Shown here: positions 1,164 to 27,385 of the stretch, piece after piece
Position numbering within the stretch: position 1 is the first letter of the stretch
Layout: every line of letters starts with the position of its first letter
Assembly: GCA_038245785.1 (NCBI GenBank)
Contig: JBBRSB010000005.1
Coordinates: 11,110 to 75,109 of the forward strand
Length of the DNA stretch: 64,000 nucleotides
Direction of reading: 5' to 3'
Source of the DNA: Gloeobacterales cyanobacterium
GTDB lineage: Bacteria; Cyanobacteriota; Cyanobacteriia; Gloeobacterales; PMM-0068
Translations under genes and position numbers: made by a program
The notes under the pieces: generated by a model
The model's input: only the letters and a program-made list of their open reading frames with translations
Told to the model about the DNA's origin: nothing
Databases searched by the model: none

Positions 1164-1655
1164 TCAATCTACGCCCAATAATCTACGCCAGCCAGAACGA
1201 TTAGCATTGGTCGGGACCATTGGCCTAGAGGATTCCTGCTCTTTGCGCAAAGATTCCAGCTGCTCTTTGGAGGCCAGAGAGGACATTTCACGACGAAGCT
1301 CATGAAGAACAGGCCGCATGTGCTCTACAACCCGTGCTGCAACTTTCTCAATCAATTGCTCATCCCATTCAGGCTCATGGGTCCGAACGATACGGTTACT
1401 TTCATCTAAAAATCGTTCTAGCTCTTCCTGAGCGATTAACGTAGGGCTATTGGGTGGATCGTCTTCATGGCGTGCGATGGTGGCCAGCCGACCATCAGCA
1501 ATCCAACGGCGAATAGTACGGACACTGCGGCCCGTTAAGGCTGAAACTTCTACGAGCGTCAATTCTGGTTTCACGACGTCCCCCTTATCCCTATCACTAA
1601 AAGTCACTAAAAAATCTCGCTTGGATTCCACGTCAGTATGACGCGGCACTGACAA
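1164..1655 (-). CDS. helix-turn-helix DNA-binding protein (excisionase/MerR-like HTH)
   Basis: LTLVEVSALTGRSVRTIRRWIADGRL is a typical HTH_17/excisionase-type motif. The C-terminal half looks coiled-coil-like. Confidence 0.55.
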   Translation of the reverse strand: MSVPRHTDVESKRDFLVTFSDRDKGDVVKPELTLVEVSALTGRSVRTIRRWIADGRLATIARHEDDPPNSPTLIAQEELERFLDESNRIVRTHEPEWDEQLIEKVAARVVEHMRPVLHELRREMSSLASKEQLESLRKEQESSRPMVPTNANRSGWRRLLGVD

Positions 1656-1982: not shown

Positions 1983-4900
1983 ATGGCGATTAAGGCAACG
2001 AGTGGCAGCAATGTAGCCCGCCCCCGCAGATTCAACACGGTAATGGTAGAAACCATTGATGGAGCCTGTACCGAGGATCGGTATTTTAGCTCTGGTGAGT
2101 TGGAGTCCATGAAGGGCTACTTCAACGAAGCCCAAAAGCGGCTTGCAGTCTCACAAATTATCATTAGCAATGCGGAATCCATCGTCTCTAGAGCGGCCAC
2201 CCGGATTTTCCAGGGAGGCTCTCCCATGGCCTACGCTCCCCAGCAGATGCAGCGCTCCAAAGAAACCGTGGGTATTGGTGGACGCAAGCGGAATGAAGCG
2301 CCTGAAGGTACTACTGGATTTGGAGATGAGGTGGTTATTGAGGACCGGGGCGGCTTCCTGGAACGACTCAAATCCCTCTTTGCCAGCAGTGGGGAAACGA
2401 TCACAGCGTCTAACTTCCAACCGATCAAGATCGCTCTGTATGGTGCAGAGCGGATGCAAAAATCTCTGAGAGATTTGGATTGGTTTCTACGCTATGTGAA
2501 CTATGCTCTGTTGGCTGGTGATTTAAATATCCTGGAACTCAACTGCATTGGCTTGCGGGAGATTTTAGAGAGAGCTTGTTCGATAGATGCCACGATTGTT
2601 GCGATTCAGGAGATGCGTCGGGCTTCATTGGGCTATTTGAAGACCCAAGACGATAAGACCTTAGTTGGCAGTTATTTCGATGTCATTGTTCGTTGTTTAG
2701 AAGCAGATAAGTCAGACAGCCCCGGCGATATTATTCGTCCGTCTACAACGGACCGTCCTGGTCTGCAATTGCCTTACATCTACGGGCTCGCTGGTCAGGC
2801 CAAGCGCAAGTTCCGGATTGATAGCACTACTACTGGTGAGCAGAAAGAGATTGCAATCAAAGCAGCCTATCGCCAAGTTTTTGAACGAGATATCAGAGCA
2901 CACTATGGCCAATCCGTTTCCGTCCCGGAATCCAAAGTCAAGAATGGTGAATTCTCAGTACGGGAATTTATCCGGAACTTGGGCAAATCAGAACTTTACC
3001 GCAAGCAGTTCTTTGAGCCTTTTATTGACTCTCGGGCGTTAGAACTAGCCTTTAAGCATTTCTTAGGACGCGCACCTGAATCCCGTGCGGAAGTTCAAAA
3101 TTACTTCTCGATCGTGGCTTCGGGCGGCCTATATGCTTTGGTCGATGCCCTAATCGATTCCGATGAGTACCAGCGCGTATTTGGCGAAGATATGGTTCCC
3201 TACATTCGCGATTTGGGGCAGGAAGCGCAACCCTCCTGGAACTGGGGTGCTGCCTACAACCTCTACAACTACGCTGCACCGCGCCGTAAAGTCCCTGAAT
3301 TTATTACGCTGTTTGCGGACTACACCAACAATTTGCCTAACCAGCATCCCTATGGCGCAGGTAATGACCCCTTAGAAATTCAATTTGGGGCTATTTTCAA
3401 CAAAGAGAATAAGAACTTAAATAGCCGTCCTGCCTTGATTGGAAAAGATGTTCAGCGCATCTTGATCCGTACGGGTATTCCTTTTGAGAACGAACGAGGG
3501 ACGAAAGACTTTACACCGGCGAAGGAATCTACCCTCGGACCCAAGATTTTCAAACTCACTCAAAATGTCAGTCAGCGTTCCGGCACTATTGTTCGCAATG
3601 CGGGCATCGTCAACGTTGAAGGCAGTACTAAAGCTGTGATCCGGGCTGCTTATCTCCAAGTGTTTGGACGGGCAATTTACTCTGGACAAGAGCAAAGCGT
3701 CGCCGAAATCAAGCTGGAAAACGGTGAAATTTCTGTACGAGAATTTGTGCGCCGTATAGCGAAGTCAGATGTTTTCCGCAACCTCTATTGGACTCCGCTT
3801 TATGTCTGTAAGTCCATTGAGTATATCCACAAGCATTTGCTAGGCCGTCTCACCTATGGACGTCAGGAAACGAACAAATACTACGATATTGCCTTCAAGA
3901 AGGGCTTTTATGGGGTGGTGGATGCGATTATTGACTCGCCTGAATACGACGAGGTATACGGCGAAGATACAGTCCCCTATGAACGCTACGTCAGCCCGCG
4001 CGGTCTAGCGCTGCGTACTCTCCGGGGTGGCTCCATGCAGCAACCGATGGAGGCAAAAGCCAATCCGATGATGGATATGGTTATGGCTCGCGGAGTTGCG
4101 CCGTCACGCTCTCTCCCGTCCATTCAGGCCAGTATTAACCAAGGGGTTTCTCGCAAGCGCGACCAAACTAAGGTCTTCAAGTACACCAGTAATCTCACCC
4201 GGCCTGAGTTTGAGCAGTTGTTGCGTGCGGTCTACCGCCAAGTATTCGAACGGGATATGGACGGCTACCGCGTAAGCGCGAGCTTCAGTGAGCCTGAGTC
4301 TAAGCTTCGTAATGGTGAGATTTCGGTACGGGAGTTTGTCCGTCGTGTGGGTAGCTCGGAGCTATACCGCAAGCAATTCTTTGACCGCTATCCAAACACT
4401 CAAGTCACGGAAATAGGCTTGAAGCACTTCCTCGGTAGAGCAACCAAGGACCAGTTGGAGTTGGCTCGTCTCGGTAACATATTGGCTAAAGAAGGGTTCA
4501 AAGCCTTTGTCAGTGCGATTATTGATTCTCCTGAGTATGATGCTACCTTCGGTGAGGATGTAGTTCCTTATCGTCGCTTCCCAACCCTACCTGCGGCGAA
4601 CTTCCCGAACACAGAGACCTTATACGAACGTCAGACCTTCCAGACCAAGGCACTAGTCGTACCGAGCTTTACTACCTTGAAAGCACGTAGGGGCATGTCC
4701 ATGGATAAGATGCCGATGACGGAAAGTGCTTTGGCTGATCTTCAGAAGCATAAAACTCTGATTGACCCGACCAAGCCGCGCTATCTGGAATTGGGTAAAT
4801 CTCTCAGAGAAGGGGGAGATGATTACACCGTTGGAGCTCGTCGCAATCCTCTGCCTATCTACAGGCTCACGGACAACAGTGGCTATACCGATAAAGAGAT

Positions 4901-5369
4901 AGCGATTCGAGCGGCCTATCGTCAGGTCTTCGAGCGAGATCTTCCTGAAGGTCTACGCCTATCAAAACCAGAATCTCGTCTCAAGAATGGTGAAATTAAC
5001 GTTCGGGAATTTATCCGTGCTTTGGGTAAATCCGATACCTACCGCAAGCAATTCTTTGATCCTTATCCCAACACGAAGGTGACGGAGTTCAACTTCAAAC
5101 ACTTCTTGGGACGTGCACCTGCGACACAGGAAGAAATCCAACTCTATAACCGGATTTTTGCAACCCAGGGATTGGCTGCTGCTGTAGACGCCATGCTCGA
5201 CAGTGAGGAATATTTCGCAATCTTTGGCGAAAACGTTGTTCCGTACCGTCGTTATCCAACGCTGCCGATTGGGACCTACACAGGCTCGGTGGCGACCAAC
5301 GATGAGCTTATCCAGCAGTCTTGGTCTTCTCTGTCGCCTTCGTACCTCGGTTTTAGCTTTTCTCGTTAG
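1983..5369 (+). CDS. apcE: phycobilisome core-membrane linker ApcE (LCM) with four REP linker domains
   Basis: N-terminus MAIKATSGSNVARPR...SRAATRIFQGGSPMAY is phycobiliprotein-like and carries an inserted loop. LRDLDWFLRYVNYALLAGD and ERACS (chromophore Cys region) follow. Four linker repeats are each marked by AAYRQVFERD / NGEISVREF / KHFLGR / GEDxVPY. Confidence 0.95.
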   Translation: MAIKATSGSNVARPRRFNTVMVETIDGACTEDRYFSSGELESMKGYFNEAQKRLAVSQIIISNAESIVSRAATRIFQGGSPMAYAPQQMQRSKETVGIGGRKRNEAPEGTTGFGDEVVIEDRGGFLERLKSLFASSGETITASNFQPIKIALYGAERMQKSLRDLDWFLRYVNYALLAGDLNILELNCIGLREILERACSIDATIVAIQEMRRASLGYLKTQDDKTLVGSYFDVIVRCLEADKSDSPGDIIRPSTTDRPGLQLPYIYGLAGQAKRKFRIDSTTTGEQKEIAIKAAYRQVFERDIRAHYGQSVSVPESKVKNGEFSVREFIRNLGKSELYRKQFFEPFIDSRALELAFKHFLGRAPESRAEVQNYFSIVASGGLYALVDALIDSDEYQRVFGEDMVPYIRDLGQEAQPSWNWGAAYNLYNYAAPRRKVPEFITLFADYTNNLPNQHPYGAGNDPLEIQFGAIFNKENKNLNSRPALIGKDVQRILIRTGIPFENERGTKDFTPAKESTLGPKIFKLTQNVSQRSGTIVRNAGIVNVEGSTKAVIRAAYLQVFGRAIYSGQEQSVAEIKLENGEISVREFVRRIAKSDVFRNLYWTPLYVCKSIEYIHKHLLGRLTYGRQETNKYYDIAFKKGFYGVVDAIIDSPEYDEVYGEDTVPYERYVSPRGLALRTLRGGSMQQPMEAKANPMMDMVMARGVAPSRSLPSIQASINQGVSRKRDQTKVFKYTSNLTRPEFEQLLRAVYRQVFERDMDGYRVSASFSEPESKLRNGEISVREFVRRVGSSELYRKQFFDRYPNTQVTEIGLKHFLGRATKDQLELARLGNILAKEGFKAFVSAIIDSPEYDATFGEDVVPYRRFPTLPAANFPNTETLYERQTFQTKALVVPSFTTLKARRGMSMDKMPMTESALADLQKHKTLIDPTKPRYLELGKSLREGGDDYTVGARRNPLPIYRLTDNSGYTDKEIAIRAAYRQVFERDLPEGLRLSKPESRLKNGEINVREFIRALGKSDTYRKQFFDPYPNTKVTEFNFKHFLGRAPATQEEIQLYNRIFATQGLAAAVDAMLDSEEYFAIFGENVVPYRRYPTLPIGTYTGSVATNDELIQQSWSSLSPSYLGFSFSR

Positions 5370-5377
5370 GGGTTCTT

Positions 5378-6712
5378 ATGCAGCCTATTGTTCTACGTAA
5401 ACTAACTCCCCGCCGCCCACTGGAAAGCCGTCCTCCCTTGAACAGCTACAATCAGGGCGTGGCGGTCTGGAAGGCCCTCGCGGGTACTCAATATGCCATT
5501 GAGAAAGCCCAGGACATGTCTAAACCGGCTCTGCGGTCTAATAACATAGGGGCCGTACCTGGAGGCCTTCAGGGTAAGCGGGCAGGAGGTAAATCTCAGC
5601 CAGGGAAAGTTTATCGCTTGAGTCCACAGCAGCCCAAAGCTGAGAAAGAAGCTGTCATCAAAGCGGTTTATCGTCAAGTGTTAGAAAGACCCTTGTTCGA
5701 TGGATTCCGCCTGAATGAACCAGAGTCTCGAGTAACCAATGGGGATATAACCGTCCGTGAGTTTGTCCGGGCTGTAGCGACTTCTGATGTCTATATCCGT
5801 CAGTTTTTTACCCGCTTCCCCAACACAAAAGTGGTTGAATATCTATTCAGACATCTCTTAGGGCGTGTGCCTCAAGACCAAGTTGAGCTGATTGCCTACC
5901 ATGATCTGCTGGCTAGAAAAGGTCTAAAAGCTGCTGTAGAGGCGATGATAAGCTCTACAGAGTACACGCAGGTATTTGGGGATGATACGGTCCCCTATCC
6001 TCGCTATACCTCTGATCCTAAGAATGGGTATACGGCTGGTGCTTATGCCGGAAGTATCCGGGTATTTAGCCAGCAGACCTTCCAAAATTCCACCGTCAAT
6101 TTTCCTAGTTTTGAGAATCCCCTTTTAGGCCTAGCACGCTATCAGGGACTTGATACGACTGGGAACCGGGTGCAACCTGCTCGCCCTCAACTAGATGCTC
6201 CTAGAATTTATTCCTTGGGTGACAACACAAAGGTTGAACTCATTTTGCGGGCTGCTTATAAACAGGTCTGGGAGAAGGATTTAGGTGAAGCTCCTCGACT
6301 AAATGAACCCGAATCTCGCCTCCGCAATGGGGATATTACTGTCAAGGAATTTATTCGGGCCTTAGGACATTCCGATTTTTATCTTCGAACCTATCTCGGT
6401 AAGTGGGATAATTCCAAGCTGGCGGAATTTAACTTTAAGCACTTCCTAGGCCGTCGTCCCGCTTCTACCCAGGAGCTTGCACAACATACCCAAACCTTGG
6501 GTCAGCGCGGTCTGAAAGCTGCTATCGATGAACTGTTGAATAGTGCTGAATACCGGAAAAACTTTGGAGACAACACTGTGCCCTATAGTACGCTGCGGTC
6601 TGAGCGCTATGTCGGCACTGTGGACCAACCGTCTCGCGCCTATGCCGGGACCTTCTCACAGGTACGTGAGCAGTACCACAAGAACACTACCCCTGCCTAT
6701 GAAAACCTATGA
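5378..6712 (+). CDS. free phycobilisome linker with two REP (PF00427-type) domains, ApcE REP3-REP4-like
   Basis: Two copies of the linker signature are present. The first is VYRQVLERP..NGDITVREFVRA..FRHLLGR..GDDTVPY and the second is AYKQVWEKD..NGDITVKEFIRA..FKHFLGR..GDNTVPY. They are preceded by a basic arm-like N-terminus. The start lies 8 nt after the apcE stop. Confidence 0.85.
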   Translation: MQPIVLRKLTPRRPLESRPPLNSYNQGVAVWKALAGTQYAIEKAQDMSKPALRSNNIGAVPGGLQGKRAGGKSQPGKVYRLSPQQPKAEKEAVIKAVYRQVLERPLFDGFRLNEPESRVTNGDITVREFVRAVATSDVYIRQFFTRFPNTKVVEYLFRHLLGRVPQDQVELIAYHDLLARKGLKAAVEAMISSTEYTQVFGDDTVPYPRYTSDPKNGYTAGAYAGSIRVFSQQTFQNSTVNFPSFENPLLGLARYQGLDTTGNRVQPARPQLDAPRIYSLGDNTKVELILRAAYKQVWEKDLGEAPRLNEPESRLRNGDITVKEFIRALGHSDFYLRTYLGKWDNSKLAEFNFKHFLGRRPASTQELAQHTQTLGQRGLKAAIDELLNSAEYRKNFGDNTVPYSTLRSERYVGTVDQPSRAYAGTFSQVREQYHKNTTPAYENL

Positions 6713-6878
6713 AGACAGGGCACACCGCTATGGACTTACAGTGCTCACTTCCGAAAGGAAGCGTAGATACCGTGAGTAACAGAAAACTGGGTCAGGCAAT
6801 GCTGGAAGGCTTGACCCATTCGACTCTACCCATTCCAGCAAATTCAAAAAACACTATTGACCAGGAGGAACTCATTAG

Positions 6879-7364
6879 ATGAGCGTCGTTACTAAAGCGA
6901 TCGTCAATGCTGATGCCGAAGCCCGCTACCTGAGCCCCGGCGAACTAGATCGGATCCGCTCTTTCACCTCTAGTGGTGAGCGCCGTCTTCGCATTGCACA
7001 GACCCTGACCGAAGCCCGTGAGCGTATCGTCAAGCAAGGTGGAGACCAACTCTTCCAGAAGCGCCCTGATGTCGTTTCCCCCGGTGGTAACGCTTATGGT
7101 TCTGAGAAGACCGCTACCTGCCTACGTGACATGGACTACTATCTCCGTCTAATCACCTTCGGAATTGCTGCTGGTGACGTAACTCCCATTGAAGAAATCG
7201 GAGTTATCGGAGCTAAGGAAATGTATCGTTCCTTGGAAGTGCCTCTGCCTGGTATGGCTGAGTCTATCCGTGCCATGAAGCAAGTGGCTACCGGTCTTCT
7301 GTCCGGCGAAGATGCCACTGAAGCTGGCTACTACTTCGATTACCTGGCTGGTGCTTTAGGTTAA
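6879..7364 (+). CDS. apcA: allophycocyanin alpha subunit
   Basis: [26 protein letters not shown]...[32 protein letters not shown]; 161 aa; AGGAGG RBS upstream. Confidence 0.95.
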
Positions 7365-7414
7365 TTGCCTGCCAGCCCTCCTACATAACGAGAACCACTT
7401 GGGAGTTTTAAACC

Positions 7415-7903
7415 ATGCAAGATGCAGTAACTTCTGTAATCAATACCTATGATGTTCAGGGCAAGTACCTAGACACCAGCGCCATCGATAAGTTGAAGTC
7501 CTACTTCGCTACCGGTGAGCTGCGCGTTCGTGCTGCTGCTACCATCTCTGCCAACGCTTCTTCGATCATCAAAGAGTCTGTGGCTAAATTGTTCGGTGAG
7601 CAGCCTGACCTCGTCCGCCCCGGCGGAAATGCTTACACCACCCGTCGCTATGCTGCTTGCATCCGCGACCAAGACTACTTCCTACGCTATGCTACCTACG
7701 CTATGTTGGCTGGAGACCCCTCCATCCTTGATGAGCGTGTGCTGAATGGCCTTAAGGAAACCTACAACTCCTTAGGAGTGCCCATTGCTTCTTCTGTAAA
7801 GGGGATTCAATCGCTCAAAGAAGTAGTAGCTAGCTTGGTTGGTCCTGATGCCGGTAAAGAGATGGGAGTCTACTTCGACTATCTGTCCTCTGGGTTGGGC
7901 TAA
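7415..7903 (+). CDS. apcB: allophycocyanin beta subunit
   Basis: [20 protein letters not shown]...[56 protein letters not shown]; 161 aa. Confidence 0.95.
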
Positions 7904-7917
7904 AAACCTGCACTAGC

Positions 7918-7951
7918 TCTCAGTGGTTAGCTCTCCAGCTAATCACTGAGA
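7918..7951 (+). promoter_or_regulatory. intercistronic stem-loop between apcB and the first apcC-type gene
   Basis: tctcagtggttagct / ctcc / agctaatcactgaga forms a 15-bp stem with one G-T pair. No T-tract follows, so this is more likely an mRNA processing, stability or attenuation hairpin than a full terminator. Confidence 0.5.
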
Positions 7952-8005
7952 ACTACAGGTGTGTACTGTTAACTAACTGCTATTGTGCAGACCTAGGAGA
8001 AACCC

Positions 8006-8209
8006 ATGAGCCGCCAAGTGCGTATCACGGCCATCTTGCCTCGCCGTGCCCAGGGAGTGGATACGGGCCGTGAAATTCAAAACGTCTATTTCACAAAGAA
8101 AGTTAGCTACGACCAGTGGACTCCAGAGATGCTCCGCATTGGCCGCCAGGGCGGGCGAATCCTAAAAGTGGAAGTAATGGGCAGTGGAGACACAGCGCTC
8201 AATCTGTGA
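8006..8209 (+). CDS. divergent ApcC-like small core linker (CpcD-domain protein)
   Basis: MSRQVRITAILPRRAQGVDTGREIQNVYFTKKVSYDQWTPEMLRIGRQGGRILKVEV aligns by eye with the canonical ApcC pattern (REhQNxYFTK...GGKIxKVE). AGGAGA RBS. Confidence 0.8.
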   Translation: MSRQVRITAILPRRAQGVDTGREIQNVYFTKKVSYDQWTPEMLRIGRQGGRILKVEVMGSGDTALNL

Positions 8210-8288
8210 GTTTGACCAAGGCGGATGCGTCAGCTGAGGCCTTGATGTAGCTTTTGGTAGTCCCTTATTGATGGAGTTAGGTAATTCT

Positions 8289-8498
8289 ATGAGTCGCTTA
8301 TTTAAACTAACTGCCTGTGTACCTTCTAAAGCAAGAGTCCGCACGGCACGTGAACTGCAAAATACCTATTTCACAAAATTAGTGGAATACGACCGCATGT
8401 ACCCAGAAATGCAGCGTATCTCTCGCCAGGGTGGAAAAATCATCAAGGTTGAGCTATATGCGGGCCGCCCTGGACAAAATGCAGGCGTTGTCGGCTAA
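8289..8498 (+). CDS. apcC: phycobilisome small core linker ApcC (LC7.8)
   Basis: MSRLFKLTACVPSKARVRTARELQNTYFTKLVEYDRMYPEMQRISRQGGKIIKVEL is canonical ApcC. Start moved from the track start (8268) to the ATG at 8289, which gives the usual N-terminus. Confidence 0.9.
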   Translation: MSRLFKLTACVPSKARVRTARELQNTYFTKLVEYDRMYPEMQRISRQGGKIIKVELYAGRPGQNAGVVG

Positions 8499-8510
8499 AA
8501 GTTGGATTTG

Positions 8511-8537
8511 AACCGGGCTTAGACCCGGTTTATTTAT
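8511..8537 (+). terminator. rho-independent terminator of the apc operon
   Basis: aaccggg-cttaga-cccggtt followed by tatttat, 13 nt after the apcC stop. Confidence 0.6.
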
Positions 8538-8582
8538 ATCGATATTTCGCGGCACTATAGTTTCCGTGTTTTTTACTTTCTA

Positions 8583-10505
8583 TCAACTAGAAAAATAGAG
8601 CTTCAGCACAGTTGGGTCCAAGCTGTGAACAACTTTGATCTCTGGCAAACTTTGGCTGAGCGTTTTGCCATAGCCTTTGCGGGTCATCCGTGGATCTAAG
8701 ATAGCAACCACACCCCGATCCTGACGAGAACGAATTAATCTACCAAAACCCTGTTTCAGCCGCAGGGATGCGTAGGGTAACGCGAGGGCTGTGAACCAAG
8801 CCCAGGTATCTCCACCCTGCTTGAGCTGTTCACAACGGGCATCATATACAGGGTCTCCGGGAGATTGAAACGGAATCCGGTCAATAATCACCAAGCTGAG
8901 CTGAGGGCCATCTACGGAAACCCCTTCCCAGAAACTATTGGTGGCAAAAAGGACAGGATTGGGAGTAGAGCGAAACCATTCCAAAAGTTGGCGCTTCGGC
9001 ATCTGTTTTTGATGGTGACTGGGCCAGAGAATTTTTTCGGACAACGCCTCATAGCACTGCAGCATGGCTCCCATGGAAGTAAATAAAACAAACGCCCGTC
9101 CTTGAGAAAGATTGACCAATTTCTCTACTTCTAAAGCGACCTGTTCATTAAAGGCTGGTTGATTGGGGTCTGGTAGATGACGAGGTAAATAGAGCAGAGC
9201 CTGTTCTTTAAAGTTAAAGGGACTGCTAAATTTGAGCTCTAGAGCCTTCTGCGGTTCCAGCCCTACTTGCACCCGGAAATAAGCAAAGGGGTCACTTCCT
9301 CCAGTTGTTAAAGTGGCAGAAGTCCAGACACTGGTCGGGCTGTCCTCTGAGAAAAACCAGCTTTGTAGTTGAGAAGCCAGGTCTAAGGGCGCACTCGAAA
9401 ATGCAGCTTTGGTTCCAGTCCGAGTAGATTCTGTTTGTTGCCAGCTTACCCACTGGGGAGAGGGATGCATCAGTAAGTGGAGATGCCCCAAATAGCCTGC
9501 CAGGATGTCTGACAATCGGTCTCTACGCATCAGAGAGACGGCACTTTCTAGATTCTTTTCCTCGTCTTTCTCCTTAAGGTTGAGGCTCAGGAGATTTTTC
9601 TGGAGGGCCGTAATTTTTTGGTGAAGATGCGCTAAGTCTAATTGGTCAGGGTCCAAGCTCCGGCTACTGGGATTTTCTAACACTCTCGCGAAGACTTGAT
9701 TCGCTATCTGCTCAACCGCTACTCTGGCAAGCTCTACTTGCGCAAACTGCTTACGAATCCGCTTCAACGTCCTTCTAAGACCAAAGTTGCTAAATTCCAG
9801 CGTAAGGGTTCGGGTCGCATACTCAGCAAACTGATGGGCTTCATCCACTACCAAAAAGTCATAGGGTGGCAGCAGTTGGCGGCTGGTGGCCCAATCCATA
9901 AGGAGCAGGGCATGGTTCGTCACGAGAATCTGTGTCTGGGCCAGATTGCGTCGTGACTGAAAGTAAAAACACTCGCTAAAGTGTGGGCAGCGTTCCCGCA
10001 GACAATCATCGCCATCGGAGCGCACTTCATCCCACAGTTCGGGAGAGGGTTGAACCTTGAGCTCAGACCAGTCTCCTTCTAGAGAAGTGTCTACCCAAGT
10101 TCTAAATTCTTCTGGCGTCGCTTGGGCCAGCAAATATTCATCCCAACGACGCTTAGAAAGATAGTGCCCTCGACCTTTAACTAATTGGGCCGTAAAAGGG
10201 ATGCCCAAGGCTTTTTGCAGGAGAGGAATATCTTTGTAGAGATACTGTTCCTGAAGTGCGATGGTCGCTGTAGAGATAACGACCCTCTTGCCCGTGAGGA
10301 CGGCAGGGACCAGAGCCGCAAAGCTTTTCCCTGTGCCCGTTCCTGCTTCTGCGACTACAGGCATTTTTTCGGCAAAGCCCCGGTGGATAGCCCGAGCCAT
10401 TTCCAATTGAGCGGCCCGCACTTCGTACCCAGACAGAGCCCCAGCTATTTTGGTAAAAGCTTGATCAAGGGAGAGGAGCGGCTGGGAATGTGCAGAAGAT
10501 GACAC
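8583..10505 (-). CDS. dinG: DinG/Rad3-family ATP-dependent DNA helicase
   Basis: Walker A AEAGTGTGKSFA, DEAH box VVDEAHQF, a Cys cluster DDCLRERCPHFSECFYF (FeS domain), and C-terminal helicase motifs FGRLIR. Confidence 0.85.
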   Translation of the reverse strand: MSSSAHSQPLLSLDQAFTKIAGALSGYEVRAAQLEMARAIHRGFAEKMPVVAEAGTGTGKSFAALVPAVLTGKRVVISTATIALQEQYLYKDIPLLQKALGIPFTAQLVKGRGHYLSKRRWDEYLLAQATPEEFRTWVDTSLEGDWSELKVQPSPELWDEVRSDGDDCLRERCPHFSECFYFQSRRNLAQTQILVTNHALLLMDWATSRQLLPPYDFLVVDEAHQFAEYATRTLTLEFSNFGLRRTLKRIRKQFAQVELARVAVEQIANQVFARVLENPSSRSLDPDQLDLAHLHQKITALQKNLLSLNLKEKDEEKNLESAVSLMRRDRLSDILAGYLGHLHLLMHPSPQWVSWQQTESTRTGTKAAFSSAPLDLASQLQSWFFSEDSPTSVWTSATLTTGGSDPFAYFRVQVGLEPQKALELKFSSPFNFKEQALLYLPRHLPDPNQPAFNEQVALEVEKLVNLSQGRAFVLFTSMGAMLQCYEALSEKILWPSHHQKQMPKRQLLEWFRSTPNPVLFATNSFWEGVSVDGPQLSLVIIDRIPFQSPGDPVYDARCEQLKQGGDTWAWFTALALPYASLRLKQGFGRLIRSRQDRGVVAILDPRMTRKGYGKTLSQSLPEIKVVHSLDPTVLKLYFSS

Positions 10506-10994
10506 AGAATCATGTAGATATCTTCATTCATGATGCTATAAATAAAGGCTAATTGCTTGTTCTTCAGTAATTCTCTGGATGTTCGATGTTACCTTTCTAA
10601 AGAGATATGTATTTCAAGGATGAATCGTTATAAAACGTAACAAGTCAATTCTCCACTTATACGTTCCTGTCCCTCTCAAAAAAAATGGATGTATAAACCC
10701 TGAAAGCCGCTATTCTAATAGAATCTAGCTCGGCCATGTACCCTGAGATAGTAACAGTGACAAGGCCCTGACAAAGTGGCGCACAACAGGAACTCCTTCT
10801 TGTCAGGATTAAGCCCTGATAGGAATGTAAGTCCTACGTTGACTTTGGAGAAGGGCAGTGTTATCAGAGTTAGAGGAAAACTTAAGTTGTTCTTTAATTA
10901 GAACGATTCCAAGTAGACCCCTCATGGCGTCATTCTGTGTTATCACATATGCGCCAGAAAGTTGACGTTTTTCAGTCAGGAGTCCCCACAAATT

Positions 10995-11480
10995 ATGAGT
11001 GCTATCACCAAAGCTGTCCTGAACGCGGATGCTGAAGCCCGCTACTTGAGCCCTGGAGAATTGGATGTAATCCGTACCTATCTGCAATCTGGAGAGCGTC
11101 GTGTGCGCGTAGCCCGTGCACTGGCCGAGAATGCCCAAAAGATTGTCAGAGCAGCCGGAGATCAGCTATTCCAGAAGCGACCTGATATTGTTTCTCCCGG
11201 TGGCAATGCCTTCGGTGAAGTAAGAACTGCCAAGTGTCTACGTGATATGGATTATTTTCTTCGCATGATCGCCTATGGCGTTCTTGCTGGAGATACTGCT
11301 CCGATTGATGAAATTTGTTTGATTGGCATCAAGGAAACGTATCGTCTTCTAGAAGTCCCAGTCCCTCCTACGGTTGAAGGCATCAAGAACATGAAGGCCC
11401 AAGCCGTAAGCATGATGTCTGGAGACGATGCCGCAGAAGCTGGCTTCTACTTCGATTACGTCATTAGCGCAATGTCTTAA
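10995..11480 (+). CDS. second allophycocyanin alpha-type subunit (ApcA paralog)
   Basis: [26 protein letters not shown]...[35 protein letters not shown]; 161 aa. Start set at the ATG 12 nt after the CAGGAG RBS rather than the track TTG at 10962. Confidence 0.9.
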   Translation: MSAITKAVLNADAEARYLSPGELDVIRTYLQSGERRVRVARALAENAQKIVRAAGDQLFQKRPDIVSPGGNAFGEVRTAKCLRDMDYFLRMIAYGVLAGDTAPIDEICLIGIKETYRLLEVPVPPTVEGIKNMKAQAVSMMSGDDAAEAGFYFDYVISAMS

Positions 11481-11542
11481 TAACATGCCGTACATCCCTC
11501 GCGGAATGCGGTGCTAAAAAAACTACAAGGAGAACCTTCCAT

Positions 11543-12034
11543 ATGGCAATCGATGCAGTCACCCGGGTAATCAACCGAACTGATTCCCAGGGTAAATATG
11601 CTCTAGGTGCAGACCTAGATGAAATCGCAAATTTCTTTAGCGGCGGAGAAGCACGCTTAAGAGCTGCTTCTGCAATCAGTGCGAATGCTTCTGCCATTCT
11701 GCGCCAATCTGTTTCCCGCCTGTTTAGTGAGCAGCCTGACTTGCTCCGTCCAGGTGGATATAGCTATACTTCTCGTCGCTATGCCGCCTGTGTGCGTGAT
11801 ATGGAGTATTTCCTGCGCTACACTTCCTATGCTTTGGTGGCTGGTGACACTTCCATCCTTGATGAGCGCGTGCTAAATGGCTTGAAAGAAACCTATACTT
11901 CTTTGGGCGTTCCTATCGCGTCTACCGTATCTGGTATCGCTGCCATGAAGAGTGTAGTCGCTGAGATGGTTGGTGGAGATGCCGCACAGCAAACCAACCG
12001 TTACTTCGACCATTTGGCTCAGGGGCTGGGCTAA
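11543..12034 (+). CDS. second allophycocyanin beta-type subunit (ApcB paralog) with GGYSY instead of GGNAY
   Basis: MAIDAVTRVINRTDSQGKY...[58 protein letters not shown]; AAGGAGA RBS. Confidence 0.9.
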   Translation: MAIDAVTRVINRTDSQGKYALGADLDEIANFFSGGEARLRAASAISANASAILRQSVSRLFSEQPDLLRPGGYSYTSRRYAACVRDMEYFLRYTSYALVAGDTSILDERVLNGLKETYTSLGVPIASTVSGIAAMKSVVAEMVGGDAAQQTNRYFDHLAQGLG

Positions 12035-12051
12035 AACTTTCTTACCTCTTG

Positions 12052-12078
12052 GAGGGCCTTGTTAGGCCCTCTTTTTTG
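12052..12078 (+). terminator. rho-independent terminator after the second apcAB pair
   Basis: gagggcc-ttgtta-ggccctc followed by ttttttg. Confidence 0.8.
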
Positions 12079-12664: not shown

Positions 12665-13036
12665 ATGGCTCCAGTAACTGGGAAAGATTTACTCAAAAAA
12701 GTTGAAGAACTCAAAGGTACTCCAAAGAAAGAAATGGCTCGTGCACTAGGTTTTGTATCCAAAACCAAAACGGGGCAGGAGCGGGTCAAACTTGCTTCTT
12801 TCATGAATGCTTTGTTGGAAGCAAAGGGTGTTGGCTTTGGTGGAAGTTCTGAGCGTGATGGACGGGGTGGACGCTCTGCCTCCTATCGCATCCAAGTTCA
12901 ACAAAATGGCAACTTGTTGGTGGGTGCAGCTTATACCCGTGAGATGGGTCTAGAGCCTGGTACAGAGTTTGAGATCCAACTGGGACGCAAACATATCAAA
13001 TTGGTCAAAGTCAATGGTGGTGATGGAGACGAGTAG
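12665..13036 (+). CDS. cyanobacterial AbrB-family transcriptional regulator (cyAbrB/CalA-type)
   Basis: N-terminus MAPVTGKDLLKKVEELKGTPKKEMARALGF and a C-terminal AbrB/SpoVT fold signature GNLLVGAAYTREMGLEPGTEFEIQLGRKHIKLV. Confidence 0.8.
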   Translation: MAPVTGKDLLKKVEELKGTPKKEMARALGFVSKTKTGQERVKLASFMNALLEAKGVGFGGSSERDGRGGRSASYRIQVQQNGNLLVGAAYTREMGLEPGTEFEIQLGRKHIKLVKVNGGDGDE

Positions 13037-13614: not shown

Positions 13615-14202
13615 CTATAGCTTACGAATCAATCCGGTCATCACACCGCACACTTCGAGACCACTGCGAGGATGAATCGGAGGATACTTTTCGTTAGCTG
13701 GATCGAGCCAAGTTTTGCCATTTCGGTTGCGCAAATACTTAAGGGTCATTTCTCCATCAATGCGCGCCACAATAATTTGTCCATCGCGGGCTTGACTGGT
13801 AGCAGCTACTACTACAATGTCTCCTTCGTAGATGCCTGCATTGACCATTGAATCGCCCTTCACTTTTAGTAAGAAGGTTTGATGGCGGTCCTGGATCAGG
13901 TAATCATCTAAAGACATGCGTTGGTCTAAGTAATCTTCTTCTACCCCTACGGGTTCTCCTGCGGGTATGCGGGTTTCTAGAAGGGGGACACCTAGCAGTT
14001 TGGGATGGATATAAAAGCGGGTACTTTCTGGGCGGTCTTTGGCCAAATAGCCCGTTTCTTCTAAAACTTGAATCCAGCGATAGACGGTAGTGCGATGTTG
14101 CCTAAGGTCATCCGCAAGCGTACGGATAGGAGGCAAAGGCCTATTTCCATAGGTGTCAATGAGTTGCTGTAAAAACTCTCTTTGGCGTCTGGTAATCGAC
14201 AT
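13615..14202 (-). CDS. lexA: LexA repressor (S24 peptidase)
   Basis: N-terminal winged HTH (TVYRWIQVLEETGYL), Ala-Gly site in RIPAGEPV, catalytic Ser in KGDSMVNAGI and Lys in MTLKYL. Confidence 0.9.
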   Translation of the reverse strand: MSITRRQREFLQQLIDTYGNRPLPPIRTLADDLRQHRTTVYRWIQVLEETGYLAKDRPESTRFYIHPKLLGVPLLETRIPAGEPVGVEEDYLDQRMSLDDYLIQDRHQTFLLKVKGDSMVNAGIYEGDIVVVAATSQARDGQIIVARIDGEMTLKYLRNRNGKTWLDPANEKYPPIHPRSGLEVCGVMTGLIRKL

Positions 14203-19656: not shown

Positions 19657-22600
19657 TTAGACCATCGCCATCTGGCCACCTTTTAGCAACAGCTCAGCGC
19701 CTCTAAGTAAGTCTTCTTCCAAGTAGGGCTTGGTGAAGTAACCTTTGGCTCCTAGCTGATAGGCCGTTTGCCTATGTTTGTCTGCGCTACGAGAGGTGAG
19801 CATAGCAACGGGAAGATGTTTGAGACGGCTATCTTTTTGAACTTGGGAGAGGAACTCAAAGCCGTCCATTCGAGGCATTTCCACATCGCAGAATACCATA
19901 TCGCAGGCAAGACCAGCCTTGAGTTTTTCGGTGGCTTCTTGTCCATCTCTGGCCTGTTCTACGCGGTAGCCTGCCTTGATAAACGTCATCGATAACAGCT
20001 CACGCACCGTGATCGAATCATCCACAATCAGAACAGTAGGTTGGCTTTGCTTCTTGACTACTTTGGCCGGGCGGTATGGTTTCATCTCCTTGGCGGCAGG
20101 GAGTTGGCCTGTCACCATCCCAATCAATTCACCGACATCTGCAATCGACATCACCTGGCCATTGCCAAGAACCGTGACCCCAGCCAACCCCTGAGGTTTA
20201 TCTACAGGCCCTTTGAGTTGCTTGATAACAATTTCTTGCTCTTCGATAAAGGCATCCACCCCGACGGCGACGTAAGTCTCTCCGCTGCGGAGGATGACCG
20301 TAGCTACTTCTTTCTCCTTCATAAAGTCTGTGGAAGTACTGATACCAGGACGCTGATAAACCAGCAATTCAGAGAGAGGAACAAAAGGAATAAAGCGATC
20401 GCGCCAGAGAATGTAACGCCGTTTTCCTTCAGCCTTAATCCGGTCTGTCGGCAGTTCAACCATTTCATCAATACTGTCTAGCGGGAAAGCGATCATCGCT
20501 TGACCATTGCGACAGAGGATGGCCCGAGAAATACTCAAGGTTAAAGGAAGGCGGATGGTAAAGGTTGTTCCTTCCCCAGGAGTGGAATCAATCAGAACAT
20601 TCCCGCGCAAACGGTTCAGTCTATTCTGAACAACGTCCATACCGACGCCCCGTCCAGCAATCTCCGTCACCTGCTCCACGGTGCTGAAACCAGGTAGGAA
20701 GATCAGGGGGAAGACTTCGCCATCTGTCATCACCGCAGCCTGTTCAGGAGTGAGTAACCCCCGCTCTACCGCTTTGGCTCGGATCCGACGGGCGTCCAAT
20801 CCCCGGCCATCATCTTTGACGGAAATGATCGTTTGGTTGCCTTGATGAGAGGCCGAGACAGTAATTTTACCTTTCGCTTTTTTGTTCAATCTGCGCCGCT
20901 CCTCAATCGGCTCAATCCCATGCATCAGGGCATTGGTAGTGAGGTGGGTGAGCGGGTCATATAGCTCTTCTAAGATCGCCTTATCGAGTAAGGTTTCGCG
21001 TCCCAGCAGTTCTAGCTCAACTTCTTTACCCATGTTGATCGAGAGGTCGCGCACGGCGCGGGGTAGACGGTCTACCAGTTCGCTGAGCGGCAACATCCGG
21101 ATCTGGTTGAGTCCGTCCTGGAGTTGGGATGAGGTCTGCCGGAATTGACGGCTGGTTTCATCCGACTCATCCGTGACAAATTCAATATCGTCGGAAGCTT
21201 CTTTAATCCGTACGATCAGTTCCATAATCTCCTGAGAGAGGGTATGGAAGGCGGTGTAGCGGTCCATCTCTAGAGCATCAAAAGCTTCTTGGCCCCGATT
21301 GATATCGGCAATTGGGCTGGAAGTAGCTCCTGGAGCCTGAATGCCAAGTACAGATTTGTCGTAGTATTCCTCTAGCTCTCGGCTGACTCGGTCCATTTTG
21401 GTAACCCGCTGCTGGAGCATTTCCAAGGAAGCCCGGAGACGAGTCTGCTGATTCTCGAGGGTATTGCGGTTGATGACGAGTTCGCCTACCAAATTGCTCA
21501 AACCATCTAAGTGGCGCACTTCTACCCGCATGGTGCGACGGACCACAGGTCCGGTCAACGGAGCCCGTGACTCTGCGGATGCCGCCACCGCTGGTTGGGG
21601 AATTTCACGACCACCGCGCTCAGGCGGTGTTCCAGTACGGGTGGGACGACGGGCAGGACGTGCCGCAGGGGTCGCTTTGGGCGCAGGAGTCGCAGGAGTA
21701 ATAATAACAGGAGAAGGAAGAATATCTGTAGCTTGAGTCTGTTCCACAGCTTCTTTAGGAGCGTCAAACAAGGCTGCCAGATCCATCTCTTCATCAGAAT
21801 TGACGGTAGAAGCAAGTTCCTTCGAGGCAGGTGAGCTTTCCCGCTCCATCTCAGGCATGGAGGTAAACAAGTCGGCCAGAGAGTCTGCTGTTTCCGAGAC
21901 CGCAACTGGTTCCTGTAAGCGCAGCTCACGTGCCAAGTCGTATCCGGCAGCCGAAGGCGAGAAGGGGGGTTCGGCTTCGTCTTCGGGGAAAAGACTGGAG
22001 AGCGATGCTATCGTATCTTGCTCTTGGGCCTGTTCTTGCTTGACTAGCTGTTCGAGGACAGGAGCTGGAGCCACAATGAAGTTGTCTTTGGGCGGAGCAA
22101 ATAGTTGAGCGAGGATGTCGCCAAGGGATTCCTCTTCGGAAAGCTCCGCAACTGCAGCCATCGGCTCTACCGCTGGAGCTTCTAGAGAAACCAGAGGGAC
22201 CACAGCTTCGGCTACAGGAAGTTCTAACTCTTCTGATAGTAGAGACTCTAAAGCTGAAGCGGTCAGCCCCATACCAAGGGTGACTTCTAGGACTCCTGGG
22301 ATTTCCAAAACTGCTGTTTCTTCTGCCGCAGTTTCCACGACCTCTGGTGCGAACAGGTCGAACAGTTCTTCTGGCACAACCATGGGAATTTCAGGGAGCA
22401 CTTCTGGGGCCAGAACTTCCGCAAGGATTTCTTGCGTAAGCTGCTCTTCTGCAAGAACCTCTGACAGGATTTCCTGTGTGGGCCGCTCTTCTACTTCTTC
22501 AATCACCGGCACTGGGAACCCAGCACATTCCATGAGCCAAGGAGAAGGTTTTACCTGAGCGCCATCGCCCTGCAGAATCAGCGCTTTTGATTGCTGGAAT

Positions 22601-24279
22601 TCTGCCAGTACCCTGAAGCCCATCTCTTGCCAGCAAGAATCTCCACTGCGCAAGAGCGCCATCGCCAAGGTTTGACAGAGATTTTCCCACTGGGAGTATC
22701 CGTTGGCTGTGCCTAGCTCTGTCAGAGTCCGAGCCAGGGTCAGTATCTCTTCGCGCACAGGCTCAAACCGAGGCTGGATGAAGCATTCCTGTAGAGCGTA
22801 AATCCCTTCATCGACTTCTTCTAAGAATTCAGCGGGTAGCGTAAGCGGTTCTGGTTCTGCGGGGGCTGCGACTAATTCGGGTTCTGCCTGGGATAGGACA
22901 GCAAAAATCTCTACTGGTTCTGGCTCTATCGGTTCTGGCGCTTCGAAGGCTAGAGGGACAGTAACAAGTTCTGCTTCAACAAATATGGGTTCTTCTTGAG
23001 GTATGGCTTCAACAATTTCTGCTATTTCTGTTGCTTCTACTAGCGGTGCTGTGACCTCGAGCGGTACTTCCAGAGAGGCCAGAACGAGTTCAGGCTCTGT
23101 CTCTTGCCCTGTAAGGTCCCCAGTAGATGCAATGGCCTCTACTACAGGAACTGCAAGCGGTACTTCAGGAGCCAGGACAAATTCAGGTTCTGTTTGGGAG
23201 AGCGCTTCTATTTCAACAGCCACAGGTTCATAAGCTGCTACCTCAATGCCGTTGAGCTTTTGCTCAATGCGCATCAGCAGAGGTTCAACTTCTTGCAGGG
23301 CGGCTTCGTCTAGTTCAAGATTGACAGCCGGTAGTCGATCAACGACACCTTGTAAGATAATCCGAGCTTGATCTAAATAGCTATGGAGGACGGCATCAAA
23401 AAGCGCAGGCTGATTGTGGATTTCACGGCAAAAATGCTCCAAGCGAAAGGCAATTTGCCGGATCGCTTGCAGGTGGAGCATAGCAGCTCCTCCCTTGAGG
23501 GAGTGAAAAGACCGATATAGCTCTTCGCGGATTTCGTCTAGATCTAGGCTTGGGTCAAAATCTGGGGTGCTTAGGGACAGCAAGTTCCGCTCGGCAGTCA
23601 CTAAGTTCTCTTGGGCTTCTTCAATAAAATATCCCAAAATTCTCTGTTGGTCAGGACTGAGCGGCGTATGCACTAAAGTCGTTACTACAGGAGCAGGAAG
23701 CCCGGTTATAGGAGCGACGGGAGGGACAGAAATTTCAGGTTTTTCTTCTTCAACTTCTTCAACTAGTGTTGCCTGTTCTAACTCAAATGGTTTTAATGTT
23801 TCTACTGCTTCTGGCTGTTCTAGCCAAAGCTGTTCTATCTCAAAGGGTTCTAAAGTTTGTATAGAATCTGTGCTTAGGTTATTGAGCTTGGCTGCAATCT
23901 TCTCTCCGATTGGCCCCATATCAGCTAAACACTTCTCATTGATGACTGGGTCAATCGTCGGTAGCGCGTAGAACATAACCTTGAGCAGATCTAGCCCCTG
24001 CAAGAGGTAGCCTTCTAACTCTTGGTCTATGTGCAGTTGGCGGTCTTGCAAGATGTTGAAACAATCTTCTAGTTTGTGAGAGACACCCAGGATTGCCTGG
24101 AGGCCCAGCATGGCGGCTCCACCCTTGACTGAGTGCGCAGCCCGAAATAGTTCTCTGAGAACATCTGCAGGGTCATCACTGTACTGTAGCTCCATCAAGC
24201 CCTGTTCCATCGTATTGAGATGGTCACGGGCTTCCTCGATAAAGTACTCCAGGATGCGTTGCTGTGCGTCTTGCTCCAT
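19657..24279 (-). CDS. pilL: CheA-like hybrid histidine kinase (PilL/HmpE type): two Hpt domains, long acidic Pro/Glu/Val-rich spacer, kinase, CheW-like and C-terminal receiver domains
   Basis: Hpt motifs FRAAHSVKGGAAMLGL and YRSFHSLKGGAAMLHL. HATPase motifs HLTTNALMHGIE, DDGRGLD and GRGVGMDVV. Receiver VLIVDDSITVRELL...DVEMPRMDGFEF...KP. Confidence 0.85.
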   Translation of the reverse strand: MEQDAQQRILEYFIEEARDHLNTMEQGLMELQYSDDPADVLRELFRAAHSVKGGAAMLGLQAILGVSHKLEDCFNILQDRQLHIDQELEGYLLQGLDLLKVMFYALPTIDPVINEKCLADMGPIGEKIAAKLNNLSTDSIQTLEPFEIEQLWLEQPEAVETLKPFELEQATLVEEVEEEKPEISVPPVAPITGLPAPVVTTLVHTPLSPDQQRILGYFIEEAQENLVTAERNLLSLSTPDFDPSLDLDEIREELYRSFHSLKGGAAMLHLQAIRQIAFRLEHFCREIHNQPALFDAVLHSYLDQARIILQGVVDRLPAVNLELDEAALQEVEPLLMRIEQKLNGIEVAAYEPVAVEIEALSQTEPEFVLAPEVPLAVPVVEAIASTGDLTGQETEPELVLASLEVPLEVTAPLVEATEIAEIVEAIPQEEPIFVEAELVTVPLAFEAPEPIEPEPVEIFAVLSQAEPELVAAPAEPEPLTLPAEFLEEVDEGIYALQECFIQPRFEPVREEILTLARTLTELGTANGYSQWENLCQTLAMALLRSGDSCWQEMGFRVLAEFQQSKALILQGDGAQVKPSPWLMECAGFPVPVIEEVEERPTQEILSEVLAEEQLTQEILAEVLAPEVLPEIPMVVPEELFDLFAPEVVETAAEETAVLEIPGVLEVTLGMGLTASALESLLSEELELPVAEAVVPLVSLEAPAVEPMAAVAELSEEESLGDILAQLFAPPKDNFIVAPAPVLEQLVKQEQAQEQDTIASLSSLFPEDEAEPPFSPSAAGYDLARELRLQEPVAVSETADSLADLFTSMPEMERESSPASKELASTVNSDEEMDLAALFDAPKEAVEQTQATDILPSPVIITPATPAPKATPAARPARRPTRTGTPPERGGREIPQPAVAASAESRAPLTGPVVRRTMRVEVRHLDGLSNLVGELVINRNTLENQQTRLRASLEMLQQRVTKMDRVSRELEEYYDKSVLGIQAPGATSSPIADINRGQEAFDALEMDRYTAFHTLSQEIMELIVRIKEASDDIEFVTDESDETSRQFRQTSSQLQDGLNQIRMLPLSELVDRLPRAVRDLSINMGKEVELELLGRETLLDKAILEELYDPLTHLTTNALMHGIEPIEERRRLNKKAKGKITVSASHQGNQTIISVKDDGRGLDARRIRAKAVERGLLTPEQAAVMTDGEVFPLIFLPGFSTVEQVTEIAGRGVGMDVVQNRLNRLRGNVLIDSTPGEGTTFTIRLPLTLSISRAILCRNGQAMIAFPLDSIDEMVELPTDRIKAEGKRRYILWRDRFIPFVPLSELLVYQRPGISTSTDFMKEKEVATVILRSGETYVAVGVDAFIEEQEIVIKQLKGPVDKPQGLAGVTVLGNGQVMSIADVGELIGMVTGQLPAAKEMKPYRPAKVVKKQSQPTVLIVDDSITVRELLSMTFIKAGYRVEQARDGQEATEKLKAGLACDMVFCDVEMPRMDGFEFLSQVQKDSRLKHLPVAMLTSRSADKHRQTAYQLGAKGYFTKPYLEEDLLRGAELLLKGGQMAMV

Positions 24280-24298
24280 GGAAAAGCTCCTTTATCCG

Positions 24299-26392: not shown

Positions 26393-26454
26393 GGTCCTAC
26401 CTCTTTTGAAACTCGTCTTTGAAAACTCATCTTGCATGCGCTGGGTGAATGGTC

Positions 26455-27006
26455 TTAGGCTGCTGCCCATTGTTTGGCGGTGACGATGGAGCCAGGAGTA
26501 AGGAGGATCACAGGTTGGTCCTCAGTGTGGAACTTGCCCTGAATATGTTGGGCCAATCCTTCTTCTAAAGATTGATTCACCATCTCTTCAATCTGGTCTG
26601 CATTGATCCAGGCCATACCTTGGATAGCGTGCACGGCCAATCCCAAAACTCCTTCTCCCTCTTGCACAACAATCACGGAACAGGAACCGATAAATTCTGT
26701 ACTGGCCTGACCGTAGAGCTGGCGAAGGTCCAGAATCCAGATAATTTCTCCCCGTAAATTAAAGGTTCCCAAAAGGAGTGAAGAGATATTGGGCATAGGC
26801 GTAATTTGCTCTGGCAAAATCTCTACGACTTCGACAACGGTAGTAGCGGCGAAAGCAAATTGTTCTTCTCCAGACAGACCAAAGCGCAGGTAAAGGTCTC
26901 CTTGCGGTATGGGCATGCGGGGAGCGTCTTCTAAGGGAGTGAGGTCTATCCCTCGGAAAGCGGTGTTTACTGCGTTCGAGTCTCGTGCGTTCAAGTCTTG
27001 TGCCAT
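26455..27006 (-). CDS. pilI: CheW-like coupling protein (PilI/HmpC type)
   Basis: 183-aa CheW-fold pattern ([21 protein letters not shown]...[10 protein letters not shown]). It sits between the CheY-like and MCP genes. Confidence 0.75.
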
Positions 27007-27012
27007 GCAGCC

Positions 27013-27378: not shown

Positions 27379-27385
27379 GGCAATC

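Follow-up and report, generated by a model that had tools for sequence, protein, structure and literature searches.

Here we report the analysis of a 64,000-nucleotide (nt) stretch of DNA (the window) from an uncultured Gloeobacterales cyanobacterium (assembly GCA_038245785.1, contig JBBRSB010000005.1), which carries at positions 1983-12034 a set of genes for the allophycocyanin core of the phycobilisome. Genes were assigned from an open reading frame (ORF) listing combined with Pfam and NCBIfam scans. The first gene, apcE (1983..5369, plus strand), encodes a core-membrane linker of 1128 amino acids (aa) of the pentacylindrical-core type, with an N-terminal phycobiliprotein-like (bilin-binding) domain, PF00502, and four REP domains (PF00427). 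It is followed on the same strand by a gene for a 444-aa free linker (5378..6712) with two PF00427 domains and no PF00502, an ortholog of the core-core linker (L_CC) ApcH. Downstream on this strand are the genes of the canonical allophycocyanin alpha (6879..7364, ApcA2 type) and beta (7415..7903, ApcB2 type) subunits, both with PF00502, and two genes for small core linkers with the CpcD/ApcC domain PF01383, namely a divergent 67-aa ApcC1 ortholog (8006..8209) and a canonical 69-aa ApcC of the ApcC2 type (8289..8498). The start of the latter is most likely ATG 8289, as judged from homolog lengths, and not TTG 8268 chosen by the ORF lister.

A second allophycocyanin pair is located further downstream on the plus strand, and comprises a 161-aa ApcA1 ortholog (10995..11480, starting at ATG 10995, with 10992 as the ORF alternative) and a 163-aa ApcB1 ortholog (11543..12034), both containing PF00502. 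The first-pass annotation of this DNA claimed a full standard core set (four-REP apcE, apcA, apcB and apcC) together with a two-REP free linker, an extra ApcC isoform and an extra alpha/beta pair in one compact cluster. All of these parts are present according to the Pfam (PF00427, PF01383 and PF00502) and NCBIfam assignments, and all lie within 1983-12034; the cluster is interrupted, however, by a minus-strand DinG/YoaA-like helicase gene (8583-10505) that splits the extra pair from the operon. Terminator-like hairpins, both of them consensus matches only, were found after apcC2 (8509..8532, plus strand; a 9-bp stem followed by a T-run, 11 nt past the apcC stop) and after apcB1 (12051..12072, plus strand; a 9-bp stem with six GC pairs followed by TTTTTTGTT, 17 nt past the stop). 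Their occurrence at these two positions only suggests two transcription units, apcE-apcH-apcA-apcB-apcC1-apcC2 and apcA1-apcB1. A tblastn search revealed no further phycobilisome genes elsewhere in the window.

The spacer between apcH and apcA is filled by a 57-aa ORF (6709-6882, plus strand) with ATGA overlaps at both ends, which is annotated by gene callers in relatives. It is probably spurious: an indel disrupts the reading frame in two related loci (L008 and L011; loci of relatives are numbered in this way throughout), and there is no such ORF in three others (L001, L002 and L005).

Counterparts of the Anthocerotibacter core subunits

The heptacylindrical phycobilisome core has been solved in Anthocerotibacter panamensis (Jiang et al. 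2023, PMC10696076; PDB 8IMI, 8IMJ and 8IMK). As described in that work and in a 2026 review (PMC13436157), ApcE, ApcA2/ApcB2 and ApcC2 of this organism make a pentacylindrical core, and two copies of ApcH, an ApcE-like protein devoid of the bilin domain, join the C/C' half-cylinders via their N-termini. The two additional cylinders, D and D', are organised by ApcH, consist mainly of (ApcA1/ApcB1)3 trimers and are capped by ApcC1, so that the 5+2 core holds twelve allophycocyanin hexamers. The extra parts encoded in the window are reciprocal best matches, one-to-one, of the A. panamensis chains in PDB entries 8IMI and 8IMK. We estimate a probability of roughly 85% that the genes of this locus specify a complete set of allophycocyanin-core parts for an Anthocerotibacter-type 5+2 heptacylindrical core in an uncultured member of the Gloeobacterales. 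The suggestion of the first-pass annotation that the organism can build an enlarged core is borne out, as the extras match in composition the bicylindrical subcomplex at the top of the A. panamensis core (PMC10696076; PMC13436157); its 'extra-cylinder parts list' is correct, but the system is already known from cryo-electron microscopy.

In a PDB sequence search, the 444-aa linker matched A. panamensis ApcH (8imk_1) with an E-value of 5.2e-154 over residues 1-442 versus 1-429. The match is full-length and collinear, covering the ApcH-specific N-terminal arm and C-terminal tail. The window protein consists of an N-terminal arm of about 80 aa, two REP domains and a C-terminal tail, and the bilin-binding domain is absent according to Pfam. 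Residues M1, Q2, P3, L6, R7, R13, R18, P19, L21 and W31 of the arm are invariant in 13 sequences, and a search for a counterpart of the N- and C-terminal segments in ApcE found none. Both REP domains are nearest to REP4 of ApcE (51-52% identity), which is consistent with an origin of ApcH from the ApcE C-terminus. The predicted role of the protein is to bridge the C/C' half-cylinders to the extra D/D' cylinders. Its gene sits between apcE and apcA in the window, as in loci L001, L002, L003, L005, L008 and L011. The two-REP protein could instead serve to attach phycocyanin, as a rod-core or chain linker of the CpcJ, CpcN, Glr1262 or Glr2806 type, given that multi-REP, bilin-free linkers have this function in Gloeobacterales and that these homologs are detectable with the window protein (CpcN at 323, Glr1262 at 275, Glr2806 at 271 and CpcJ at 141 bits). 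However, these linkers match in the REP domains only, whereas the match to ApcH reaches 516 bits and includes its specific termini, and the position between apcE and apcA is that of apcH in A. panamensis. We therefore consider a phycocyanin linker very unlikely and retain the assignment to ApcH.

The standard core subunits also have their best matches in A. panamensis. ApcE of the window is 62.5% identical to A. panamensis ApcE, its best PDB match (8imi_0, 1556 bits, residues 1-1126 versus 1-1133), and the second match is ApcE of Gloeobacter violaceus at 1350 bits. The operon alpha subunit passes the NCBIfam ApcA equivalog cut-off (284 bits, cut-off 270) and has ApcA2 (8imi_A, 302.6 bits) as its top PDB match; likewise, the operon beta subunit passes TIGR01337 (251 bits, cut-off 228), has ApcB2 (8imi_H, 294 bits) as its top match, and retains Asn72 and Cys82 in the alignment. 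The two small linkers are distinguished by their scores. The 67-aa protein scores 72.4 bits to ApcC1 (8imk_M) versus 53 bits to ApcC2 and at most 49 bits to the ApcC proteins of crown cyanobacteria, and differs from A. panamensis ApcC1 in a 7-residue C-terminal extension. For the 69-aa protein, crown ApcC and A. panamensis ApcC2 tie at 92-96 bits, and ApcC1 scores 54 bits.

The extra alpha and beta subunits fall below the respective equivalog cut-offs of NCBIfam (233 bits against 270 for ApcA, and 205.5 against 228 for ApcB), and are thus divergent paralogs. The top PDB match of the extra alpha is ApcA1 (8imk_A, 272.7 bits, all others at or below 236), with 77% identity to A. panamensis ApcA1 versus 61.5% to ApcA2 of the window itself, and that of the extra beta is ApcB1 (8imk_G, 243.4 bits versus 209 for ApcB2), with 71.5% identity. 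In neighbour-joining trees the extra pair groups with ApcA1/ApcB1 of A. panamensis, Candidatus Cyanaurora vandensis and the metagenome-assembled genome (MAG) GCA_038226175.1, and the operon pair groups with ApcA2/ApcB2; the A1/A2 and B1/B2 splits are older than the divergence of these lineages. Pairs of allophycocyanin genes near apcE-like genes are also a hallmark of the clusters for far-red light photoacclimation (FaRLiP) and low-light photoacclimation (LoLiP), and the extra pair might accordingly be a far-red or low-light allophycocyanin (LoLiP ApcD4/ApcB3 or FaRLiP paralogs) next to an ApcE2-like linker. The scores contradict this explanation, both for the beta subunit (147.7 bits to the far-red-light allophycocyanin 8ddy_B and 180.6 to FaRLiP ApcB2 8uhe_B, versus 243 to ApcB1) and for the alpha subunit (127.5 bits to FaRLiP ApcD5 8uhe_A, versus 272.7 to ApcA1). 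Moreover, ApcE2 carries the bilin-binding domain that the window linker lacks, and no rfp or photosystem paralogs are present in the window. On the scores and the linker architecture, a far-red or low-light allophycocyanin was rejected as having next to no chance of being correct.

The bilin-binding Cys81/82 is kept in both extra subunits, in the motif TAKCLRD of the alpha and YAACVRD of the beta, where it is Cys83 in the window protein. The 'GGYSY' motif, which the first-pass annotation offered as the mark of an apcB type, reflects Tyr73 of the window ApcB1 at the conserved Asn71/72 position (GGN to GGY in the alignment). CpcM methylates this asparagine in almost every beta subunit, and efficient energy transfer depends on it (PMC10038336). 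Tyrosine at this position is common to Cyanaurora, GCA_038226175.1 and several metagenomic ApcB1 proteins. Asparagine is kept in ApcB1 of A. panamensis and in P0149, a protein 90% identical to the window ApcB1, and the motif is thus not a marker of the family, as A. panamensis and some close relatives retain GGN. The recurrent replacement of Asn71/72 by tyrosine could set the top cylinders apart in their energy transfer.

A model of assembly, with its stoichiometry, can be proposed by orthology to the A. panamensis structure. In this model, the five membrane-proximal cylinders (A, A', B, C and C') would be formed by two four-REP ApcE molecules with allophycocyanin of the ApcA2/ApcB2 type and canonical ApcC. 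Two ApcH molecules would dock by the N-terminal arm on the C/C' half-cylinders. The two REP domains of each ApcH would run through a pair of allophycocyanin hexamers, giving an additional cylinder (D or D') that consists mostly of ApcA1/ApcB1 trimers, with ApcC1 as its cap. Such an arrangement would raise the number of allophycocyanin hexamers from 8 to 12 and enlarge the absorption cross-section.

Conservation of the gene module

The ApcH protein was used as a query against a collection of 5.8 billion proteins, and the DNA surrounding its relatives was searched by tblastn with the window proteins. This yielded 12 full-length ApcH relatives with 54-97% identity, including those of A. panamensis and Candidatus Cyanaurora vandensis (56% each). 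The gene order apcE-apcH-apcA-apcB-apcC1-apcC2, preceded by a divergent minus-strand gene for an HTH_17 protein, is shared without change by GCA_038226175.1 (L002), Cyanaurora vandensis (L001), A. panamensis (L005) and three sublineages of the window clade (L003, L008 and L011, with ApcH identities of 97%, 83% and 80%). With seven independent loci in at least four lineages sharing it, this arrangement is not due to chance.

The first-pass annotation had proposed to check the extras for co-occurrence across genomes, and ApcH and ApcA1/ApcB1 are indeed found together in 4/4 lineages with data: on one contig in the window clade, and at loci L005/L012 in A. panamensis, L002/L013 in GCA_038226175.1 and L001/L014 in Cyanaurora vandensis. 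Only in the window clade does the ApcA1/ApcB1 pair follow the operon and the helicase gene; in the other three lineages apcA1B1 lies elsewhere in the genome, among unrelated neighbours and without a conserved regulator. A search of the whole protein collection with the extra beta subunit found only about 13 clusters of the ApcB1 family at 90% identity, those placed in genomes belonging to these lineages and four being unplaced metagenome sequences.

The extras are intact and under strong purifying selection. Ratios of nonsynonymous to synonymous substitution rates (dN/dS), computed between the window and the relative with 83% ApcH identity, are 0.098 for ApcH, 0.076 for ApcC1, 0.072 for ApcA1 and 0.034 for ApcB1, comparable to 0.041 for ApcE. 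The dS values of ApcA1/B1 (0.35-0.40) are as low as those of ApcA2/B2, and the linkers reach about 1.0-1.3, a contrast that would fit the codon bias of highly expressed genes. Synteny and selection together exclude random paralogy or pseudogenes as the source of the extras. The first-pass annotation took the clustering of all the extras beside apcE as an argument for a functional module; this clustering is confined to the window clade and is not a general property.

The separate unit formed by apcA1-apcB1 leaves room for another proposal of that annotation, an alternative, condition-specific core, in which the extra cylinders would be added, or would form a separate bicylindrical complex, under certain light, for example very low light. 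The pair has its own terminator-like hairpin and could be regulated independently, an AbrB-like regulator gene (12665-13036) adjoins it in the window clade, and the light-dependent loss of a core layer in G. violaceus provides a precedent for remodelling in Gloeobacterales. On the other side, apcH and apcC1 belong to the main apcE-apcAB-apcC operon in all lineages and should thus be co-transcribed with the standard core, the 5+2 form of A. panamensis was purified from an ordinary culture (PMC10696076), and apcA1B1 of the other lineages has unrelated neighbours and no conserved regulator. A condition-specific core is thus improbable, and a 5+2 core built together with the standard subunits is preferred.

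Several points weigh against the assignment to a 5+2 core. ApcH of the window is only 56% identical to the structurally characterised ApcH, and an AlphaFold2 model computed from the 13-sequence alignment had low confidence (mean predicted local distance difference test score 49, predicted template modelling score 0.28) and was not used. The tyrosine of the window ApcB1 stands where A. panamensis ApcB1 retains the normally methylated asparagine, and the properties of the top cylinders may differ accordingly. The apcA1-apcB1 genes form their own transcription unit, hence independent regulation is possible. Finally, the organism is known from MAGs and metagenomes only, so that core assembly is predicted from its genes, and none of the genes for CpcN, CpcJ, CpcG, ApcD and ApcF is in the window; the paddle-shaped phycobilisome of the A. 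panamensis type has the chain linker CpcN and CpcJ, and lacks ApcD and ApcF.

Neighbour-joining trees of the four allophycocyanin subunits place the window clade outside A. panamensis, Cyanaurora and GCA_038226175.1, which a 2026 comparative study assigns to the family Anthocerotibacteraceae (PMC13237429). By its phycobilisome genes, the window clade is a deeper relative of this group. Close relatives of the window proteins are present on many metagenome contigs from JGI, ENA and Logan. A search of genome contigs with an ApcH N-terminal profile retrieved only Cyanaurora and GCA_038226175.1; the contig collection misses both A. panamensis and the window MAG and is thus unusable for counting ApcH-bearing species.

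The wider ApcH family

The structural study reported no ApcH homolog above 50% identity except in Aurora, and left open whether the extra cylinders are ancestral or were acquired late in one lineage (PMC10696076). ApcH is now found in at least five lineages beyond that report, and is, judging by these homologs, more widespread than published. A search of the available literature library found no paper containing both 'ApcH' and 'Gloeobacterales'. An exhaustive hidden Markov model search of 1.84 billion cluster representatives identified only two full-length ApcH-type clusters at 50% identity. The second of these is a divergent clade represented by P0044 and P0160, which share 69% identity; their identity to the window ApcH is 39-42%, and the N- and C-terminal signatures of ApcH are preserved in this clade. 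Their genes (L006:10001-11296, in GCA_031399965.1, and L015:7283-8575) also have apcE and apcA as their neighbours on either side, and lie on contigs of Gloeobacteraceae-like MAGs, with an ApcE nearest to that of G. violaceus (2101 bits); the operon at L006 has a single apcC, and the L015 contig stops inside apcB. One member of the second cluster is labelled 'Gloeobacterales cyanobacterium ES-bin-141'. A search for an ortholog of the divergent ApcH in cultured Gloeobacter found none, which fits the reported absence of ApcH from strain PCC 7421 (PMC10696076).

Because ApcH occurs both in the deep window clade and in a divergent clade with G. violaceus-like ApcE, we tentatively raise the possibility that the ApcH-based enlarged core is a general, perhaps ancestral, design of Gloeobacterales and not an oddity of A. 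panamensis and Aurora, although the odds at present favour the narrower view. If the wider view is true, the five-cylinder core of cultured Gloeobacter, and perhaps that of crown cyanobacteria, would represent a reduction. A single cultured organism is known to have the heptacylindrical core; the window shows its complete gene module to be conserved, in the same synteny and under purifying selection, in another deep lineage of Gloeobacterales that recurs in environmental metagenomes. The ancestral-versus-derived question is now open to phylogenetics, and the loci described here are concrete targets for enrichment and structural work.

The hidden Markov model search also returned two-REP proteins (P0175, P0178, P0194, P0197 and P0202), which were rejected as ApcE fragments or unrelated linkers in which the ApcH N-terminus is absent. 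The top match of the ApcH profile, P0159, is a 2006-aa protein from ENA metagenomes with seven REP stretches. It is longer than the five-REP CpcN of A. panamensis and may be an even longer chain linker.

Neighbouring genes and comparison with known systems

The HTH_17 gene upstream of apcE (1164-1655, minus strand) encodes a protein of the MerR/excisionase type. It is kept in all Anthocerotibacteraceae-type loci examined, with 44-48% identity to the A. panamensis and Cyanaurora proteins, and the Gloeobacteraceae-like loci lack it. Its product may act as a conserved regulator of the apc operon. Directly past apcA1-apcB1 are genes for an AbrB-like regulator (12665-13036, plus strand) and a LexA-like protein with a Peptidase_S24 domain (13615-14202, minus strand), an arrangement kept within the window clade (L003 and L008) and not in other lineages. 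A chemotaxis-like cluster (19657-28567, minus strand) encodes a 1540-aa hybrid CheA (Hpt, HATPase, CheW and receiver domains), a methyl-accepting chemotaxis protein with tetratricopeptide repeats, CheW and a PatA-type response regulator (DUF4388 and receiver domains), and constitutes the usual cyanobacterial signalling module for type IV pili and phototaxis. An insertion sequence-type transposase gene (HTH_21 and rve integrase core; 47858-48697, plus strand) and a gene for an FRG-domain protein (44808-45596, minus strand) lie in a stretch of lower GC content (0.41-0.46), suggesting a mobile or variable region.

Compared with the A. panamensis core, the part list of the window is the same one-for-one, and so is the operon order, including the divergent upstream HTH_17 gene. 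ApcH has the same N-terminal arm, two REP domains and C-terminal tail, without PF00502; best-match scores identify ApcA1, ApcB1 and ApcC1 as orthologs of the A. panamensis proteins, and trees group the first two with them as well. The differences lie in the position of apcA1-apcB1, which is 2.5 kb downstream of the operon in the window and near 1.58 Mb of a 4.19-Mb chromosome assembly in A. panamensis (where the operon locus was read from a different assembly), and in the tyrosine at the methylatable Asn71/72 of ApcB1; moreover, the window organism is uncultured and its core is a predicted one. Cyanaurora has ApcH and reportedly no CpcN (PMC10696076), which indicates that the core type and the peripheral architecture are separable.

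With the pentacylindrical cores of Anabaena 7120 (7EYD), T. vulcanus (7VEA) and G. violaceus (9K9W), the window shares a four-REP ApcE that aligns end to end (1234-1350 bits) as well as canonical ApcA, ApcB and ApcC; these systems have no ApcH, ApcA1/B1 or ApcC1, and reach five cylinders at most. The phycocyanin linkers CpcN, CpcJ, Glr1262 and Glr2806 resemble the window linker in having tandem PF00427 domains without a bilin-binding domain, but they differ in domain number, carry other non-REP segments and bind phycocyanin hexamers, the homology being restricted to the REP domains. The LoLiP nanotubes of ApcD4/ApcB3 and the FaRLiP core of ApcE2, ApcD2/D3/D5 and ApcB2 likewise rely on paralogous allophycocyanins encoded beside linker genes and represent altered antennae. 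Their subunits, however, belong to other clades with much lower scores, ApcE2 has a bilin domain, and these paralogs serve a spectral shift, whereas the extras of the window are predicted to add cylinders to the core.

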